Notes under the pieces: generated by a model | Told to the model about the DNA's origin: nothing | The model's input: the letters and a program-made list of their open reading frames with translations, nothing else | Database searches by the model: none | From: an uncultured bacterium | GTDB lineage: Bacteria > Verrucomicrobiota > Kiritimatiellia > RFP12 > UBA1067 | DNA length: 44,258 bases | Direction: 5' to 3' | Assembly: GCA_902772905.1 (NCBI GenBank) | Contig: CACYCL010000164.1 | Span: 1-44,258 of the forward strand | Translations under genes and position numbers: made by a program | Shown: positions 28,190-35,518 of the stretch, piece by piece | How positions within the stretch are numbered: position 1 is the first letter of the stretch | How the letters are laid out: each line of letters starts with the position of its first letter

Positions 28190-29374
28190 CTATGCAACAC
28201 AAGAACATTCACCACAATCAGGATGATACCTCTGGCAGTAGTCACGGTGAATCTGCAGCAGTCCCTGTATCAACAGACCATTGCCCGCATATACGGCAAC
28301 TGGATTGTGGTCGCGTCCGAAGAGTCGAAAGGCTGTCAGCCGCACGGGTTGCGAAACATCCTCCGGCGGAAGCCATTCGGGCGGCTCCGTCATGCGCTCT
28401 TCGGCCATTGCATAGGGCACCACTACGTTTGCCAGCACAGCCGCCGCACGTCCCCTTCCCATGCACCGCGCAATCAGCTCCCCGCCTGTGCACCCTTTTT
28501 GCCGCTGCTCCCCGCACATTGCGGACACCATGTCCCTGCATGACTTAGGAGAGAAATCCGAGGCATCGGCGAGTTCCATGGTCGGCGTAGCGGTGAACAC
28601 CGTCGCAGCATCGGCTAGTCTCCGTTCCGGCTGGTTGCACGGCCTCAGCCCCATGCGTTCCCAGTTCTCGAAACCTCCTGCCACAAGCAGTGCCTCCTTC
28701 GCGATGTCTGGCTCCCGGAGCAGATTGCCTATCGGGACGCGTTCGGCAATCCGGCGAAACTGCGACGCATTCCGCGAATAGCCAAGTGCCGTCATCACCT
28801 CTTCGTAAAACACCTGCCTGCGCCCAGCCGCTCCTTCGCAAAGCCGTCCGCAGATTCGCCGCGCCTTCATGTGAAGCCTGCGACGCCCAGCCGACGCCAA
28901 GACCTCATGCGCGAAGTCGGGGTCATCGGCCAGACGCTGCCTGCACGGGCGCTCGTCGAGCGGAAGGCGAGCGTATGGATAGGCCGACAGGTCGATCTGG
29001 TCGGGCGAGAACGATGCATCCTCCGACATGAATCGACCAAGCCAGATTGACACTGCGCCTGGCGGCAGGGTGGCCGGAACAGGTCCGCATCTCCAAGTGA
29101 CGTGCGCAATGACGTTCCTGTACTTTGGATCCGATCCATGTCCATGAATGTCCCAGTCCGACGGGCACAGATGTATCTCGACATCTCCAACGACACGCCG
29201 CCGTTCATGCCCGATCTCGATGACCGCGCCGAGGAAGTCCGGCCCTGCGCCAAGGTTCCACTCGCCAGGGCTGACTACAGTCACCTCGCTGCCCCGCCTT
29301 GTGTAGAGACGCCGTGGCCTGAACGCCGCATCGTACCATATCGCCTGGACGTGCCTCTCCGATACGCCGCCCAT
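28190..29374 (-). CDS. DUF2851 family protein
   Basis: PGEWNLGAGPDF, GDVEIH..SDW..HGH..DP.Y.NVIAHV; QGLLQIHRDYC...CGEC at the C-terminus. Confidence 0.85.
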   Translation of the reverse strand: MGGVSERHVQAIWYDAAFRPRRLYTRRGSEVTVVSPGEWNLGAGPDFLGAVIEIGHERRRVVGDVEIHLCPSDWDIHGHGSDPKYRNVIAHVTWRCGPVPATLPPGAVSIWLGRFMSEDASFSPDQIDLSAYPYARLPLDERPCRQRLADDPDFAHEVLASAGRRRLHMKARRICGRLCEGAAGRRQVFYEEVMTALGYSRNASQFRRIAERVPIGNLLREPDIAKEALLVAGGFENWERMGLRPCNQPERRLADAATVFTATPTMELADASDFSPKSCRDMVSAMCGEQRQKGCTGGELIARCMGRGRAAAVLANVVVPYAMAEERMTEPPEWLPPEDVSQPVRLTAFRLFGRDHNPVAVYAGNGLLIQGLLQIHRDYCQRYHPDCGECSCVA

Positions 29375-29383
29375 TGCCGCCCC

Positions 29384-30370
29384 TCAAGCCGCCTTTGCCG
29401 TCATGACGCGGTCGGCGATTTCCGCAGCCACTTCGGGATGTTCACGAAGGTATGCTATAGCCGCCAGATTCCCCTGCGCAAGCTGGCTGTCGCCGTACGA
29501 AAGCCAGCTGCCGCGCTTCTCGACTATGCCACGCGCAAGCGCCGCGTCGAGAATTGAACCCTCGCGTGAGATTCCGCATGAGTAGAGTATGTCGAACTCG
29601 GCCTCGGCAAACGGCGCCGCGACCTTGTTCTTTACGACCTTGACTCTTGTGCGATTGCCTATTACCTGTCCGGACGAGTCCTTGATTGCGCCTATGCGCT
29701 GCACCTGAAGGCGGCAGGTTGCATAGAACTTGAGCGCCTTGCCGCCAGGAGTGGTCTCGGGATTGCCGAACATCACGCCTATCTTGTCGCGCACCTGGTT
29801 AGTGAAGATGCAAAGCGTCCTCGTCTGCGCCATGGTCGCAGTCAGCTTGCGCATCGCCTGTGACATCAGCCTCGCCTGCAGCCCCACGTGGGCATCGCCT
29901 ATGTCGCCGTCGATCTCGGCCTGCGGCGTAAGCGCGGCGACGGAGTCGATGACAACCACGTCTACCGCGCCTGACTTCGCCAGCTGCTCGCATATCGTAA
30001 GCGCCTCCTCCCCCGAATTTGGCTGCGACACGACAAGTTCGTCGAGGTTGACGCCTATTTTCCTTGCATAAGCAGGATCAAGCGCATGTTCCGCGTCTAT
30101 GAACGCAGCCACGCCGCCCGCCTTCTGCGCATTCGCCACAACATGCAGGGCAAGCGTCGTCTTGCCAGACGACTCGTGTCCGTAACATTCTACGATTCTG
30201 CCACGCGGAAGCCCGCCTACGCCCAGTGCCATGTCAAGCGAAAGCGCACCTGTTGAAATGGACTCAACGGTTTTGTCGGCCGCGTCACCAAGACGCAGCA
30301 CGGCCATTTCGCCGAACTCCTTGCGTATGGACTTCATTACCTCGTCAAGCACCGTTGCAATCTTTCCCAT
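29384..30370 (-). CDS. recA: Recombinase RecA
   Basis: [72 protein letters not shown]. Confidence 0.99.
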
Positions 30371-30395: not shown

Positions 30396-30830
30396 TCAGT
30401 CCCACTTCACGAATCGACTGGGATTCGCGAAGAGGTTCACTTTCTCGATATGGTCCACGACAGGCCTTCCCCCGCTCGGCGTACCATATATCTCTATCAC
30501 GTCAAAGCGAAAGTCGCCGTGCCATCTGTTGGCGCGCCGCCATGCATTGCAGGCCCGCCGCAAGTTGGTTCGCTTCCGCCTGTCAATGCGAGAGAGCCTT
30601 CTCCCATACGGCGACATCGTGGCGTGCTGCTTCACCTCGACAAACACCATTGCGTCCGTCTTGGGATCCCATGCCACAAGGTCTATTTCCAGACGTCGGT
30701 CCTTGGCCACGGGGCAGCTGTTGCGGTCGATTATCTGGAATCCGGCGCGGCGAAGGTATTCCGCCGCGACATCCTCGCCCCAAACACCGTTCGCAACGCC
30801 GATGTTCGCCGAATCACGCCGCAGACGCAT
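30396..30830 (-). CDS. yraN: YraN family (UPF0102) PD-(D/E)XK nuclease
   Basis: [38 protein letters not shown]; ATG 30830 overlaps the upstream ORF. Confidence 0.9.
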
Positions 30831-31413
30831 TGCGATACCCCCTTTCACGTGCCTCGTACGCCGAGGTGTCGTGCGCTACAAGCATCGGGATGCCAAACGC
30901 CACGACGGACATGGAGCCCGCTATGGCCTCGCACAGTCCAACGGCCTCGGCTTGTGTGATTATGATGTGCCCATGCATTCCCTCGCCGCCATCTCGCGGG
31001 TTGCGGTAGACTTCAAGCGAATAGCCGGTTATAGGCTCGACGAGGTGGCGCAACTGTATTTTCGTTGCCGCACGCGATGTCTGGTGGTAGAGGCCGCGGT
31101 CGTCGTTGATTGACTCGCATTCTCCTCTGAACACCTGAAGAATCCTGCACAGGTCATTGAAGTCGAGCTTGACGCATATTGCATTCTCCCAGTCAAAGCG
31201 CGCGAACGTCGGAGACGCCCCCCTTCTGTCGCCTATCGCACACTGATTCGCAACGCGCATCATGATGCTGCCGTCTACGTTGTCATGCGCGGGATGCAGC
31301 TTCAGCTCCAACGCGCCGCCCGTGCCCTTTTGATTGGCGTGGTAGAATCTGAGCGTCGGCCTGTACTGGCCTAGAGCCGCTCCCTGACTGTTTCTCTCCT
31401 TGTTCGTTTCCAT
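30814..31413 (-). CDS. Hypothetical protein, putative Whirly-like ssDNA-binding protein
   Basis: AAGGAG RBS before ATG 31413, 199 aa; motif order resembles the plant Whirly domain (see findings); the CDS is well supported, the fold is inference. Confidence 0.6.
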   Translation of the reverse strand: METNKERNSQGAALGQYRPTLRFYHANQKGTGGALELKLHPAHDNVDGSIMMRVANQCAIGDRRGASPTFARFDWENAICVKLDFNDLCRILQVFRGECESINDDRGLYHQTSRAATKIQLRHLVEPITGYSLEVYRNPRDGGEGMHGHIIITQAEAVGLCEAIAGSMSVVAFGIPMLVAHDTSAYEARERGYRNASAA

Positions 31414-31475: not shown

Positions 31476-33029
31476 TCACATCCAGAATGAATTCGCCTCG
31501 TCGTCGCAGCGACGGTAGTCGAGCGCGGCAAGAAGGTCGTCATCGCGCACACCCTCGGATCCTGCGAGATCCGCAAGGGTCCTCGCCACGCGCAGAACCT
31601 TGTCATAGGCGCGGGCAGAGAGGTTCAGCCGCTCAATCATGCGGACAAGCTTCTCGCGATCCTTGGCTGTAAAATGGCATACGTCCGCCAAATGCCGACT
31701 CCTGACCTGCGCATTGGTTCGCACGCCAGGCATGCCACGGTAGCGCTCTGCTTGAATTGCCCGTGCGCGAATCACCCTCTCGCGCATGGCTTCGCTCGAC
31801 TCCCCGGGATCCATGAGTGGAAGTTCCCTGGCATTGACCGACGGCACCTCGATCTGAATGTCTATTCTGTCCAGGACAGGCCCGGATACGCGCCCCTGAT
31901 ATTTCAGTATCGCCGTCGGAGAGCATCTGCACGCATGAGCCGCGTCGCCATACCAGCCGCATGGGCATGGGTTCATCGCGGCGACAAGCATGAACTCCGA
32001 CGGAAAGTCGTAGGCTGCCGCCGCGCGCGACACGCCGACGTGTCCGTCTTCGAGAGGCTGTCTCAAAACCTCCAGCGACTGACGCGGAAACTCGGCAAAC
32101 TCGTCCAGGAACAGCACGCCCCTGTGCGCAAGCGACACCTCGCCGGGAAGCGCGCGCATTCCGCCGCCGAGCAGGCCTATGGACGATACGGTGTGATGCG
32201 GCGCACGGAACGGCCGCCGCGTCACGAAGCGACCCGCGCCGGCCCCCTTCGCCTCGCCTGCCACTGAATGAATTCGCGACACTTCAAGCGCCTCGTCAAC
32301 CGTGAGCGGCGGCAATATGGACGGTATGCGACGCGCCAGCATTGTCTTGCCGGAGCCCGGCGATCCTATCATCAGTATGTTGTGGCCGCCGGCAACGGCG
32401 ACTTCGATGGCCTTGCGGGCACGCTCCTGCCCCTTCACATCGGAAAAGTCGTCCATCGCGCCGCAACCAGACGCAACAAGTCCGCCAAGGTCGGTATAGC
32501 GAGGCTCAATGGCCCGCTCGCCGTTCAAATACTGCACCGTCTCCTGCAATGTGCGCACAGGTATGACATCAATGCCGCCGACCACGCTGGCCTCATCTAC
32601 GTTTTCAATCGGCACTATGGCGGCACGTCGTCCAATGCGCTTCATTTCAAGTACAATCGGCAGTATGCCTCGCACGCGCCGCACCTCTCCGGAAAGCGAC
32701 AGCTCGCCGACGAACGCATACTCATCCAGATGTTCGTTGCTGATGCGCCCTGTGGCCTTCAAAAGACACACCGCTATCGGCAAATCGTATATCGGCCCCT
32801 CCTTCCGGACATCGGCGGGCGCGAGATTAACCGTAACGTCGAATTCCTTCCTCGATGCAAGCCCTTGGTTCTTGAGCGCCGTAGGAATCCTGTCCTTGGC
32901 CTCTTTTACCGCCGTATCCGGAAGCCCGACAATTGCGAACTGCGACGTGCCGACGGCAGAATACACCTCTATCTCGACCGTTCGCGCGTCGACTCCGTTC
33001 ACAGCTCCAGAGTAGCATTTTGCAAGCAT
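31476..33029 (-). CDS. comM: ComM/YifB Mg-chelatase-like AAA+ helicase
   Basis: IVGLPDTAVKE, TVNLAPADVRKEG..YDLPIA, GSPGSGKT, PFRAPHHT, PGEVSLAHRGVLFLDE, AAMNPCPCG, DRIDI, LSARAYDKVLRVARTLADL. Confidence 0.96.
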   Translation of the reverse strand: MLAKCYSGAVNGVDARTVEIEVYSAVGTSQFAIVGLPDTAVKEAKDRIPTALKNQGLASRKEFDVTVNLAPADVRKEGPIYDLPIAVCLLKATGRISNEHLDEYAFVGELSLSGEVRRVRGILPIVLEMKRIGRRAAIVPIENVDEASVVGGIDVIPVRTLQETVQYLNGERAIEPRYTDLGGLVASGCGAMDDFSDVKGQERARKAIEVAVAGGHNILMIGSPGSGKTMLARRIPSILPPLTVDEALEVSRIHSVAGEAKGAGAGRFVTRRPFRAPHHTVSSIGLLGGGMRALPGEVSLAHRGVLFLDEFAEFPRQSLEVLRQPLEDGHVGVSRAAAAYDFPSEFMLVAAMNPCPCGWYGDAAHACRCSPTAILKYQGRVSGPVLDRIDIQIEVPSVNARELPLMDPGESSEAMRERVIRARAIQAERYRGMPGVRTNAQVRSRHLADVCHFTAKDREKLVRMIERLNLSARAYDKVLRVARTLADLAGSEGVRDDDLLAALDYRRCDDEANSFWM

Positions 33030-33068
33030 CTTTTCGTTCCTTTCCGCCTTCGTGCTGAAGACACGGAT

Positions 33069-33077
33069 ATTATCGCA
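33069..33077 (-). promoter_or_regulatory. Extended -10 element of the comM operon promoter
   Basis: TGCGATAAT about 40 nt upstream of the comM ATG; no consensus -35, whose position is occupied by the CTTAAG array. Confidence 0.6.
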
Positions 33078-33090
33078 GAAAAAACGAAAA

Positions 33091-33134
33091 GATACCTTAA
33101 GATTACCTTAAGATTTACCTTAAGATTTCTTAAG
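33091..33134. repeat. Four phased CTTAAG boxes (putative operator array)
   Basis: gatacCTTAAGattacCTTAAGatttacCTTAAGatttCTTAAG; boxes start at 33096, 33107, 33119, 33129. Confidence 0.9.
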
Positions 33135-33202
33135 GTTCAGATCGGAAATTTTACACAGCAACCGAAGCCGCAGCCAATGTTTACGGACCTGCGGCGACAC
33201 CC

Positions 33203-35518
33203 CTATGCGAAAAACTCGGCAACGCGCAAAAGCAACTCGTCCCTTTCGGATACGGTTCTCACTGTCGCGGGAATGGATTTTCGGAATGTAGCGCCGTAGT
33301 TCTTAGTCACTATTCGCGGATCGGATATGACTACCACTCCACGATCCGACCTAGTGCGAATCAGCCGCCCAAAACCCTGGCGAAAGCGAACCACCGCCTC
33401 TGGCAGCGCGTAGTCCCGGAAAGAGCTGCCGCCCGAGCGGTCTATCATCTCCGACCTCGCCTCCACAATGGGATCACCGACCTGCGCAAAGGGAAGACGC
33501 GCCAGCACAACGCATGAAAGCGCCTCGCCTGCGACATCCACACCCTCCCAGAAACTCTGCGCCCCGAACACGATTACCGGCCTGTCGCCCATTTCATCGT
33601 CGCATGAACGCCGCAGTTCAGCGGTCATAGACTCACGCGACATGCCCTCGCCCTGCACCAGGAGCCGCATTCCGTCGCCTTCCAGCGCAGGCCTCGCATG
33701 CGCCGCTACGGCATTCATCATCTCATAGCTCGTAAACAGCACAAGCGCGCGCCCGTGCGTAACGGCGAACAGGTCACGCATCAGCGCCGCGAGCGCCTCG
33801 GCGTAGCCAGACGGATTCGCGGACGGATCTGGCAGACAGTCGGGCGCAAGCACAAGCGCCTGGCGGAAGTAGTCGAACGGACTTGCCGCCGTCATCATCC
33901 TGAACCGCTCGTCGCACCCAAGCCTACGAGCCATGTACGCGAAGTCAGAGCCTACCCGCAGTGTAGCCGAGCAAAGCACTACCGAGTCCTTCACGTCGTA
34001 GAACATCCGCTTCAAGTCACCCGCCACCGACAGCGGCGCGGCGACAAGCCGCACATAAGAGGGACGATTCTCGGCGCGTACGCGTTCCGCCCAGTAGGCG
34101 TGAGTGTCCTTCTCTCCGCTTATCACGAAGTTCGCCTCGTTTGCGAAATCCACCAGCGACTCCGCGATCCCGCAGACCTGCGCGGAGAGATCGCCGAGGT
34201 AATTGAGCTCGCCATCTGGCACGGCGCCGTCCAATGTGTCGCGCAAGGAATGCAGAAGGTTGACCATCGACGCAAGGCGGGCCTCCAGCCCCGCCTGCGC
34301 ACGGCGGAGGCGCGTCTCGTCCCATGCGTCCGGCTCGTATGGCTTGAAGAGCCCGTGAAGCGAGAACTCGCGCACCAGCCTATGCCCGTCCACGCCGTGC
34401 ACAATGCGGTAGCGGCACACTCTGCGGTCCTTCGCAGGTCTAAGCAGAAGAGCCGCCACGTCGAAGAGTTCATCCGCTGCGTCTACTATGCCGACGACAA
34501 GCCGCGACGCCTCGCCGAGCGCACGCGCGACAGCCTCTGCCGCCGGGCCACCGGCGAAGGCGCCCTTCTGGAACTGGCGCTCAACGGCCGCCAGCACTCC
34601 TCCCGGACGCGTACGCTTGCCGCGCCCTCGCCTGACAAGGCGGTTCAGTATGCGCGCAAGCGCTGGCATGGAAAGCTCGCAGCCGAGATAGTCCGTCGCA
34701 ATCGACTCCAAGTTGTGCGCTTCGTCCATCACTATGCGTCCATACGCAGGGAGTATGCCGCTGCCGGGCGAAGTTGCCTCGGCAAGAACCAACGCGTGGT
34801 TTACCACTACGAGATGCGCTTCCGACGCGGCCTTGCGGGCCTTGTAGACGAAGCAGCGAGAGTAGTATGGGCATCTCCTTCCGCCACATTCCTCGCCCGG
34901 GCACGTCAGCAGCGAACGCGGCAGCCCTTCGTAGCCGTCGAGGTCGCCGTCTGCCGTGTGCCGAAGCCAGTCTATGAATCTTGGCACCAATGTCTGCTCT
35001 TCTGATGACATTGTCCAGAAGCCAGGCGCGAAGAAGTCGCCGACAGCCCTCAGGCAGAGATAGTTGGCACGCCCCTTGAGAAGCGCGACCCTGAACTTGT
35101 GCGCATCAGCGCCAATGACGGCAAGCGCACGCGGTATGTCGGAACCGATGAGCTGGGACTGAAGATTGCGCGTGGCGGTCGAGACGATCACAGGCGTATC
35201 GTTCGTCCATGCCCACAACATTGACGGCACCAGGTAGGCCAGCGACTTGCCCACGCCCGTCCCAGCTTCTATCATGAGATGCTCGCGCGCATTGAACGCC
35301 GACGCAACGGCGCCGGTCATGTCAATCTGCCCGGGCCGTTCCTCATAGCCTGGAAGCGAGCCGAGAGTGCCGCCTCGCCTAAGGTGCATGCGCACTGCCT
35401 CCACGTCGAGGCGCGAGCAGTCCTCGTGCGCAGGCAGGTGGCGCTGCCGCGAGGGCGGGGATATCTCCGGTATGAAGTCGGCCCAGCCCGGATTGTCTAT
35501 GAACTGCGCAGGAGTCAC
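33203..35518 (-). CDS. dinG: DinG/YoaA family Fe-S DNA helicase
   Basis: YEERPGQ, EAGTGVGKSLAYL, LKGRANYLC, C..C....CP...C, DEAHNL, SATL, FWEGVDV, RLPF, QGFGRLIR. Confidence 0.93.
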   Translation of the reverse strand: MTPAQFIDNPGWADFIPEISPPSRQRHLPAHEDCSRLDVEAVRMHLRRGGTLGSLPGYEERPGQIDMTGAVASAFNAREHLMIEAGTGVGKSLAYLVPSMLWAWTNDTPVIVSTATRNLQSQLIGSDIPRALAVIGADAHKFRVALLKGRANYLCLRAVGDFFAPGFWTMSSEEQTLVPRFIDWLRHTADGDLDGYEGLPRSLLTCPGEECGGRRCPYYSRCFVYKARKAASEAHLVVVNHALVLAEATSPGSGILPAYGRIVMDEAHNLESIATDYLGCELSMPALARILNRLVRRGRGKRTRPGGVLAAVERQFQKGAFAGGPAAEAVARALGEASRLVVGIVDAADELFDVAALLLRPAKDRRVCRYRIVHGVDGHRLVREFSLHGLFKPYEPDAWDETRLRRAQAGLEARLASMVNLLHSLRDTLDGAVPDGELNYLGDLSAQVCGIAESLVDFANEANFVISGEKDTHAYWAERVRAENRPSYVRLVAAPLSVAGDLKRMFYDVKDSVVLCSATLRVGSDFAYMARRLGCDERFRMMTAASPFDYFRQALVLAPDCLPDPSANPSGYAEALAALMRDLFAVTHGRALVLFTSYEMMNAVAAHARPALEGDGMRLLVQGEGMSRESMTAELRRSCDDEMGDRPVIVFGAQSFWEGVDVAGEALSCVVLARLPFAQVGDPIVEARSEMIDRSGGSSFRDYALPEAVVRFRQGFGRLIRTRSDRGVVVISDPRIVTKNYGATFRKSIPATVRTVSERDELLLRVAEFFA

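Follow-up and report, generated by a model that had tools for sequence, protein, structure and literature searches.

The promoter of the comM-recA operon of an uncultured gut bacterium of the class Kiritimatiellia carries four copies of the hexamer CTTAAG about one helical turn apart and, judging from sequence comparison, these boxes are probably the operator of a dedicated response regulator of the OmpR/PhoB family. The array lies in a stretch of 44,258 nucleotides (nt), referred to as the window, which is contig C164 of the draft genome G000 (2.36 Mb in 205 contigs, 58% G+C, 89.7% completeness), and the candidate regulator is encoded on contig C148 of the same genome. C-numbers denote contigs and the other G-numbers genomes of the collection, in which the genus is represented by 117 gut Kiritimatiellae genomes and the order by 151. 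In each species, the boxes behave like the target of a single factor that acts in trans on two or three classes of unlinked promoters, i.e., those of comM, of comEC and, in relatives, of genes of the REP-associated tyrosine transposase (RAYT) type. To our knowledge, nothing is known about the control of DNA uptake, recombination or recA in uncultured gut Kiritimatiellae.

The CTTAAG array and the comM promoter

The four CTTAAG boxes occupy positions 33096-33101, 33107-33112, 33119-33124 and 33129-33134, at the spacings of 11, 12 and 10 nt noticed before, within the 173-nt gap that separates comM from the DinG/YoaA-like helicase gene upstream of it. Read on the sense (minus) strand, the array consists of one flank-inverted unit and three direct ATCTTAAGGTA units. 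Box 1, the promoter-proximal copy (33096-33101), box 2 (33107-33112) and box 3 (33119-33124) belong to the direct units and would be centred at about -36.5, -47.5 and -59.5, respectively, if transcription starts near 33062, while the distal box 4 (33129-33134), with its inverted flanks (AACCTTAAGAA on the sense strand), would be centred at about -69.5. On this strand the 3' part of the gap reads GAACCTTAAGAA / ATCTTAAGGTAA / ATCTTAAGGTA / ATCTTAAGGTA / TCTTTTCGTTTTTTC / TGC / GATAAT and is followed by a 39-nt leader with the ribosome-binding site of comM, GGAAAGGAA (33038-33046), which is conserved in alignments of the congeners.

The -10 named in the original prediction is present as GATAAT at 33074-33069 on the minus strand and is preceded by TGC (33077-33075), so that both together form a predicted extended -10 (33069-33077). 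Between it and box 1 lies an 18-nt T-rich spacer (GTATCTTTTCGTTTTTTC on the sense strand, 33078-33095) that contains a degenerate fifth unit, ATCTTTTCG. The transcription start is expected about 7 nt past the -10, near 33062 on the minus strand. The comM promoter lacks a -35 hexamer and has AGGTAT at its place. With the 18-nt spacer between box 1 and the TG, box 1 partly overlaps the would-be -35. Relative to the predicted extended -10, boxes at or next to the missing -35 would fit the geometry of an activator. Rfam gave no match within 32800-33400. A second promoter-like site, TTGGCT-18-TAAAAT with a TG before the -10-like hexamer, lies upstream of the array (33148-33177, minus strand); if it were active, transcripts would include the boxes, or the boxes could form a roadblock.

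The array stands out from its background. CTTAAG occurs nine times in the window against 3.86 expected (sd 2.09; at least nine copies in 4 of 100 shuffles) and 297 times in the whole G000 draft, where seven neighbouring pairs lie at most 40 nt apart. All three pairs at a spacing of 10-12 nt belong to the comM array, and an array of closely phased CTTAAG is thus unique in the 2.36-Mb draft. The 11-nt unit ATCTTAAGGTA has exact matches in G000 only in its three array copies and at an isolated site (C150:1566), and 15 matches when one mismatch is allowed. Tandem Repeats Finder reports the region twice, as 33089-33127 with period 11 and 3.5 copies and as 33093-33128 with period 12, 3.1 copies and 96% matches. 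Further short tandem arrays, none with a CTTAAG box, are found in G000 at C62:18055-18085, C136:26163-26204 and C129:6614-6646, in each case 5' of an extended -10 promoter; one of them consists of three CGCAGTCTG units with a 9-nt period immediately 5' of TGCTATAAT. These arrays may be operators of other regulators.

Conservation of the array in the genus

In most congeners an array is found directly upstream of comM, at the same place but written in other letters. The CTTAAG boxes of G155 and G223 are identical to those of the window, six such boxes are present in G154, G166 and G211, and CTTAAG is also used in G115, G193, G011 and others. CTTTAG replaces it in the three proximal comM boxes of G132 and G144. 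Other lineages have CGTAAG (G213, G167, G015), CGTAAC (G008, G016, G232), TGTAAC (G017, G010), TATCAC (G093, G109), TGTCAG and ATATCAG (G013 and G178), ATCAAC (G009), CGACCC (the G003 group), TGGCCG (G112) or CGCCAA (G217). One inverted unit combined with three direct ones is also seen in relatives whose box letters differ. Absence of the array from orthologous promoters had been put forward beforehand as a point against its function; the letters CTTAAG are missing in many of these promoters, and the array is there with other letters. A reading of the palindromic CTTAAG as a restriction or methylation site was rejected because most congeners carry non-palindromic boxes at the same place.

Alignment of the promoters on the predicted -10 places the proximal hexamer 18 nt from the TG in one lineage after another. 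The hexamer located 21 nt upstream of the predicted -10 has at least one further copy phased at 10-12 nt in 54 of 84 congeners (3.8% of shuffles) and at least two phased copies in 45 of them (0.04% of shuffles). The TG before the -10 is kept in 69 of the 84 orthologous promoters, G or C is the first letter of the -10 hexamer in 61 (GATAAT, CATAAT or similar), and a spacer length of 18 nt is common to comM, comEC and RAYT promoters. In five genomes of other families of the same order no array was present in the inspected stretch directly upstream of comM. The largest expansion seen is that of G020, which has at least 11 units with a 10-nt period upstream of comM, CTCAAG and CTTGAG alternating as a repeated 20-nt palindrome.

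This conservation bears on the possibility, foreseen in the original prediction, that the array is a neutral minisatellite or an assembly artefact. Tandem units whose copy number varies from 3 to at least 11 between species are what a minisatellite would look like. However, contigs from three independent public runs are unchanged with respect to the window over 33030-33142 (two span all of it and one reaches 33139), and an array that is identical in three independent assemblies is neither an assembly artefact nor polymorphic among those strains; the public runs that contain this stretch are labelled as ruminant or other gut metagenomes. Moreover, the place and phase of the units relative to the -10 are kept across the genus, at the frequencies given above, the same boxes recur at unlinked comEC and RAYT promoters, and the three proximal comM boxes of G132 and G144 share one and the same change, from CTTAAG to CTTTAG. 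As far as sequence can tell, both explanations are refuted, and we give them practically no credence.

A candidate regulator whose recognition helix covaries with the boxes

Regulators of the OmpR/PhoB family bind hexamer direct repeats with an 11-nt period that take the place of the -35. In several congeners, the array is closely preceded by the end of an open reading frame (ORF) with a C-terminus of the OmpR/PhoB type. The counterpart of this ORF in G000 is an orphan regulator gene located just past polA (C148:7542-8228), the product of which has Response_reg (3.6e-30) and Trans_reg_C (8.7e-14) domains in Pfam and the recognition helix MLYVHVSNLRRKL. This protein reaches no NCBIfam equivalog cut-off, the best model being that of PhoB with 140.9 bits against a cut-off of 270. 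The gene is flanked by polA, a neighbour that was found in G000 only, and by an ORF of 427 amino acids without a Pfam family. All 117 genomes of the genus contain a match to the C148 regulator, and 80 of 83 best hits return it as reciprocal best match; the other three return a paralogue on C117 and were treated as paralogues. In at least 16 genomes (G211, G217, G193, G204, G219, G186, G210, G206, G214, G166, G115, G112, G158, G225, G209 and G194; a lower bound, since they were drawn from the best 150 regulator matches) 105-238 nt separate the end of the regulator gene from comM, which follows it on the same strand, and the array occupies this interval. With 52-60% identity to its closest counterparts, against about 80% for ComM, the regulator is a fast-evolving protein. 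In G154, an ORF fragment with a cytosine-5 methyltransferase-like motif (..GNAVPV..) lies between the regulator gene and the comM array, which are separated there by about 820 nt. A CTTAAG pair just before the regulator gene of G164 was dismissed because it sits in the 3' end of the upstream coding sequence.

The link between this regulator and the boxes was examined in 82 genomes, in each of which the winged-helix domain was paired with the region upstream of comM; 42 of these genomes passed an array-quality filter blind to protein and helix. In this set, the distance between the 11-residue recognition helices is negatively correlated with box similarity (rho -0.48, a strength reached in 0 of 3000 permutations). 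The correlation amounts to -0.47 when no genome is dropped (n = 44) and to -0.35 (p ~0.001) when only one genome per distinct helix is retained (n = 32), and the partial correlation given the receiver domain is -0.48. Other parts of the same protein show no comparable signal over the 42 pairs, neither the receiver domain (rho 0.009, p 0.91) nor the alpha-1 region (rho -0.11, p 0.20) nor the wing (rho 0.07, p 0.34). These same-gene controls indicate that the covariation is specific to the DNA-reading helix and speak against a purely phylogenetic signal, although relatedness remains. Identical or nearly identical helices share a box, and altered helices have altered boxes: ..MLYVHVSN.. is found with CTTAAG, ..TLYVHMSR.. 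with CGTAAG, ..LRTHMSR.. with CGTAAC, ..VVTSLMRR.. with TATCAC, ..AVRCIAKR.. with CGACCC, ..LVYSHVSR.. with CGCCAA and ..MLYMHISN.. with a CTTTAG-type box. In this way the genus offers a natural series of helices and boxes for working out how winged-helix residues read bases.

Short direct repeats one helical turn apart, kept at a fixed place before an extended -10, together with a linked regulator gene of the Response_reg plus Trans_reg_C type and covariation confined to its recognition helix, support the proposal of an OmpR/PhoB-type operator that had been derived from the sequence alone. It is nevertheless conceivable that the boxes are read by a different protein, either another transcription factor or a product of the operon, and that the link between the regulator and comM has another cause. 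In G000 the regulator gene and the array are not linked, several genomes contain two box types, and the examination was confined to the operon proteins and this one regulator family, all of which would leave room for such a reader. Against it stand the restriction of the covariation to this regulator's recognition helix, the abutting regulator gene in the 16 or more genomes listed above and the fact that hexamers with an 11-nt period are the known binding mode of the OmpR/PhoB family. Among the operon products, the 199-amino-acid protein encoded next to comM was rejected as the box-reading regulator on the grounds of fold and distribution, since it has a Whirly fold and is encoded in 87 of the 151 genomes of the order, including families in which no array was noticed directly upstream of comM. 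We regard a different reader as very unlikely.

The original prediction had also proposed that recA and comM are controlled by something other than a classical LexA box, and this is borne out at the level of sequence. The boxes are direct repeats, and neither the LexA DNA-binding domain (PF01726) nor an S24 peptidase (PF00717) has a match in the G000 draft, which is 89.7% complete. S24 peptidases occur in 33 of 65 congeners, in all cases as small ORFs, and are thus patchy in the genus. The data suggest control by a two-component regulator instead of LexA, with a regulon formed by comM-recA, comEC and, in relatives, RAYT genes.

The same boxes at comEC and RAYT promoters

The comEC gene was found in 107 of the 117 genomes of the genus, and its promoters were judged by eye in a first batch of 30 loci and a second batch of 40 genomes. 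In 15 of the 30 loci the box type before comEC is that of comM in the same genome (G144, G223, G155, G132, G154, G166, G211, G193, G219, G002, G022, G019, G177, G216 and G210). The remaining loci comprise one array shared with comM (G179, in which a single array lies between divergent comM and comEC-regulator genes), two with degenerate boxes (G000 and G123), one with another box (G217), two without a gap behind another gene, five without a comM array to compare and four ambiguous cases (G006, G187, G186 and G196). The second batch added six matches (G097, G222, G235, G167, G165 and G004) and five different boxes (G013, G178, G003, G112 and G227), most of the other genomes having comEC behind another ORF. 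An example is G219, in which a ComEC-type gene with the regulator gene behind it is preceded by four CTTTAGG boxes, one inverted and three direct, as well as by a T tract and TGCAATAAT. Automatic counts of hexamers at comEC were uninformative and gave at least two hits of a genome's own words in 9 of 17 genomes, and of other genomes' words in 41 of 232 pairs, words that belong to the same box, such as AATCTT and CTTAAG, being counted apart.

In G000 itself, the region before comEC (C24:7551-8750, minus strand) has the geometry of the comM promoter with weakened boxes, namely GTTAAT and, at a distance of 11 nt, CTTAAT, then an 18-nt spacer, TGA and TATCAT. Scans of this genome for CTTAAG pairs and for ATCTTAAGGTA disclosed no second strong array, and no array was noticed before genes other than comM and comEC. 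The competence regulon suggested by the original prediction is supported by the species-specific boxes before comEC in relatives, but in G000 by two degenerate boxes only. The ComEC protein of G000, of about 400 amino acids, matches only the Competence (ComEC N-terminal) domain; in more distant congeners the protein has about 486 amino acids and a different N-terminus.

RAYT-type genes form a third class of promoters. Scanning five relatives for CTTAAG-N4-6-CTTAAG gave 11 arrays in G223, five in G155, four in G166 and two each in G154 and G193. All 11 extra arrays fetched from G223, G155 and G166 have the four-box module of comM (the copy on G223:C10 with three exact boxes), and 10 of them precede a gene for an IS200-like (Y1_Tnp) or RAYT-type protein of about 300 amino acids. 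Contig ends truncate two of these ten ORFs, and the contig with the eleventh array stops short of any ORF. REP-like GGGGACAG(G/A)CCCC palindromes lie beside or upstream of the RAYT-type genes. RAYT genes behind the species' own box were also found in G232 (three copies), G008, G004, G210, G144 and G206, and in G003 the RAYT boxes correspond to the comEC box and not to the comM box. Seven RAYT loci have no boxes. A boxless subgroup of RAYT-type genes (G115, G209, G024, G169 and G212) has in common about 250 nt of conserved, GC-rich upstream sequence (..GGAACCATGG..GGCCAATTCC..), which may be a structured RNA or the end of an element. The RAYT family is present in 69 of the 117 genomes and is multi-copy, with nine protein matches in G223; in the abstract of PMC5581495, RAYTs are described as typically single-copy.

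The abundance of these copies raises the question of whether the module, i.e., hairpin, four boxes, T tract and extended -10, serves in the first place as the promoter of mobile RAYT/REP elements, from which the comM and comEC copies were captured or converted, the change of boxes reflecting element turnover. Nine of the 11 arrays of G223 belong to RAYT-type genes, many of them at contig ends and with REP-like palindromes beside them, and the wide distribution of the family in the genus is in line with such an origin. On the other hand, G000 has the comM array although no RAYT homologue was found in it and the REP-like motif occurs there only once, comM arrays are also present in other genomes in which no RAYT hit was obtained (e.g., G022, G109, G179 and G186), and the five loci of the boxless subgroup have a different upstream region. 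This explanation would in any case still need the regulator to read the boxes, and we consider it improbable. RAYT-type genes behind a competence-type promoter would tie the biology of REP elements to DNA uptake.

The comM-recA operon

All genes of the operon are on the minus strand. Its first gene, comM (31476-33029), encodes a YifB/ComM family protein of 517 amino acids with Mg_chelatase (9.4e-93), ChlI and Mg_chelatase_C domains in Pfam. It is followed by the gene of the 199-amino-acid protein (30814-31413), yraN (30396-30830), which encodes a predicted endonuclease of the UPF0102 family (NCBIfam YraN 1.5e-21, under the family cut-off), recA (29384-30370; Pfam RecA 1e-126) and a DUF2851 gene (28190-29374; Pfam DUF2851 2.2e-37), the last one whose order is kept in relatives according to synteny. 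The order comM, 199-amino-acid gene, yraN, recA is kept in relatives. The 199-amino-acid protein has no Pfam, NCBIfam or PDB sequence match, but its structural model (pLDDT 84.2, pTM 0.75) adopts a Whirly fold, with plant WHY2 (4kop, E 1e-6, TM 0.76) as best structural match, followed by trypanosome MRP1/2 and PUR-alpha. Its gene is a conserved partner of comM in the order and usually adjoins it. The Whirly fold is typical of single-strand binders and, on the basis of the model, the protein is probably a single-strand DNA-binding partner in recombination. The DinG/YoaA-like helicase gene upstream of the array (33203-35518, minus strand) is not conserved in synteny and was left out of the regulon. 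In G224, G214 and G009, comEC lies immediately 3' of the DinG-like helicase gene, the gene that precedes comM in the window, and dinG, comM, comEC and the regulator gene are loosely clustered genus-wide.

Proposed mode of action and weight of the evidence

In the model that we favour, the regulator would be phosphorylated by a kinase and, in its phosphorylated form, would bind the three direct units head to tail together with the inverted distal unit. The proximal copy at about -36.5, at a place without a -35, would then help RNA polymerase to use the imperfect extended -10 (TGC-GATAAT), so that comM, the Whirly-fold gene, yraN, recA and the DUF2851 gene would be switched on. The same small regulon would include comEC and, in relatives, the RAYT-type transposase genes. 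With so few targets the recognition helix and the boxes could drift together, which would leave a different box in nearly every lineage of the genus. The combination of comM, recA, the Whirly-fold protein, yraN and comEC in one regulon suggests a role in DNA uptake and recombination and not a classical SOS response, and by analogy the regulon is probably activated as PhoB and CiaR activate theirs.

The same regulator could, however, act as a repressor, its copies over -34 to -72 excluding RNA polymerase and the operon being released upon dephosphorylation. In sigma-70 promoters an extended -10 can work without a -35, and the TG-extended -10 is kept in 69 of 84 orthologues. Up to six boxes (G154, G166, G211) or at least 11 units (G020) look more like coating than like precise recruitment, and ArcA-P represses icdA through three direct repeats, as stated in the abstract of PMC4173790. 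But the boxes never lie over the -10 or the predicted start, the proximal box is placed exactly 18 nt from the TG, as expected for contact with the polymerase, and the -10 is imperfect in the 61 promoters in which it starts with G or C. In addition, CiaR activates from the same kind of box (PMC3091779). The exact spacing to an imperfect extended -10 makes us lean towards activation, and repression appears rather unlikely, if less so than the other alternatives discussed here.

Several observations weigh against activation by a single dedicated regulator. The genomes are related, so that the pairs of the covariation set are not independent trials. In 30 of the 84 genomes there is no phased copy at the fixed position; among these are miscalled -10 sites, inverted-repeat arrangements and cases with comM behind another gene. 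The comEC boxes are unlike the comM boxes in G217, G013/G178, G003, G112 and G227, and one regulator cannot explain both promoters there. G144 and G132 have CTTTAG in their proximal comM boxes while their comEC promoters still have CTTAAG, with the helix unchanged in G144 and no strong match for the regulator in G132 (2.2e-22). A RAYT promoter of G010, on a contig of 1,971 nt, carries CTTAAG though comM has TGTAAC in this genome. The regulator gene of G000 is on another contig than the array, without an adjacent kinase gene. Promoters with an extended -10 may be active on their own, so that the boxes could just as well be there for repression. Among the public runs listed, no RNA run contains the stretch. 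As to the divided box types, several genomes with two of them have two regulator paralogues of similar score, and two box types within a species are probably served by two paralogues; the comEC/comM split in G003, G013/G178, G112, G227 and G217 suggests duplication and a split of the regulon.

A further idea, which we put forward only as a speculation with a low chance of being right, is that the regulator and its boxes are under diversifying co-evolution, so that the competence/recombination regulon of each species would have a lock and key of its own. The driving force could come from RAYT/REP elements that copy the competence promoter in order to be expressed when single-stranded DNA is around or, alternatively, from the avoidance of cross-talk with incoming foreign regulators and promoters during DNA uptake in the crowded gut. 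If true, about 30 natural helix-box pairs would represent a ready-made recognition code for winged-helix response regulators.

Comparison with known systems

As a kind, the OmpR/PhoB operator is already known. PhoB binds direct hexamer or heptamer repeats with an 11-nt period that replace the -35, the phosphorylated regulator binding cooperatively and contacting sigma. The comM array resembles these sites in its phased direct repeats, in the presence of several boxes and in their predicted location in place of the -35. In contrast, PhoB has a global, conserved regulon and a conserved box, whereas two or three promoter types and a drifting box are found here. Dedicated regulators that switch on uptake and recombination genes, including comM, comEC and recA, are known from the ComE/ComD, Sxy-CRP and ComK systems, but these belong to other families (LytTR, CRP with a cofactor and ComK, respectively) and use other site architectures, and we know of no operator turnover within a genus for any of them. 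The boxes of response regulators are normally conserved across genera, as are those of CiaR. Literature searches, judged by listings and the beginnings of abstracts, gave no report of this regulator, of RAYT genes behind such a promoter, of a response-regulator-controlled comM-recA and comEC regulon in this phylum or of operator and helix turnover on such a scale within a genus.

The icdA promoter is a further system with a similar layout. According to the abstract of PMC4173790, ArcA-P acts there through three direct repeats, the number of which tunes the response, and this arrangement of phased direct repeats bound by an OmpR/PhoB-family regulator is similar to that of the comM array. ArcA differs in being a global regulator and in acting there as a repressor, with repeats that overlap promoter elements.

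A close counterpart is CiaR of the streptococcal CiaRH system, with which the array had been compared from the beginning, and the comparison is apt. According to PMC3091779, CiaR binds NTTAAG-N5-TTTAAG, which replaces the -35, and activates transcription. Both regulators belong to the OmpR/PhoB family and read a TTAAG core, the boxes being separated by N5 in CiaR and by 4-6 nt here; in both cases they stand in place of the -35 upstream of a good -10, a predicted one here, and are linked to competence, and 6 of 13 residues are identical between the recognition helix of CiaR, VVEVYVSKVRKKL, and that of the C148 regulator, MLYVHVSNLRRKL. There are also differences: CiaR promoters have two boxes and 10 nt between the second of them and the -10, as against four boxes here, with C as first letter and a distance of 21 nt from the last box to the -10 hexamer. 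The regulator described here is an orphan from another phylum, with no NCBIfam equivalog cut-off reached and no adjacent kinase comparable to CiaH, and its putative targets are comM-recA and comEC instead of small RNAs or htrA. Finally, the helix and the box of CiaR are conserved across streptococci, as described in PMC3091779, whereas both vary here within one genus. That an operator and the helix predicted to read it have changed together many times in a single genus, while the geometry of the promoter has stayed fixed, is unusual for response regulators.

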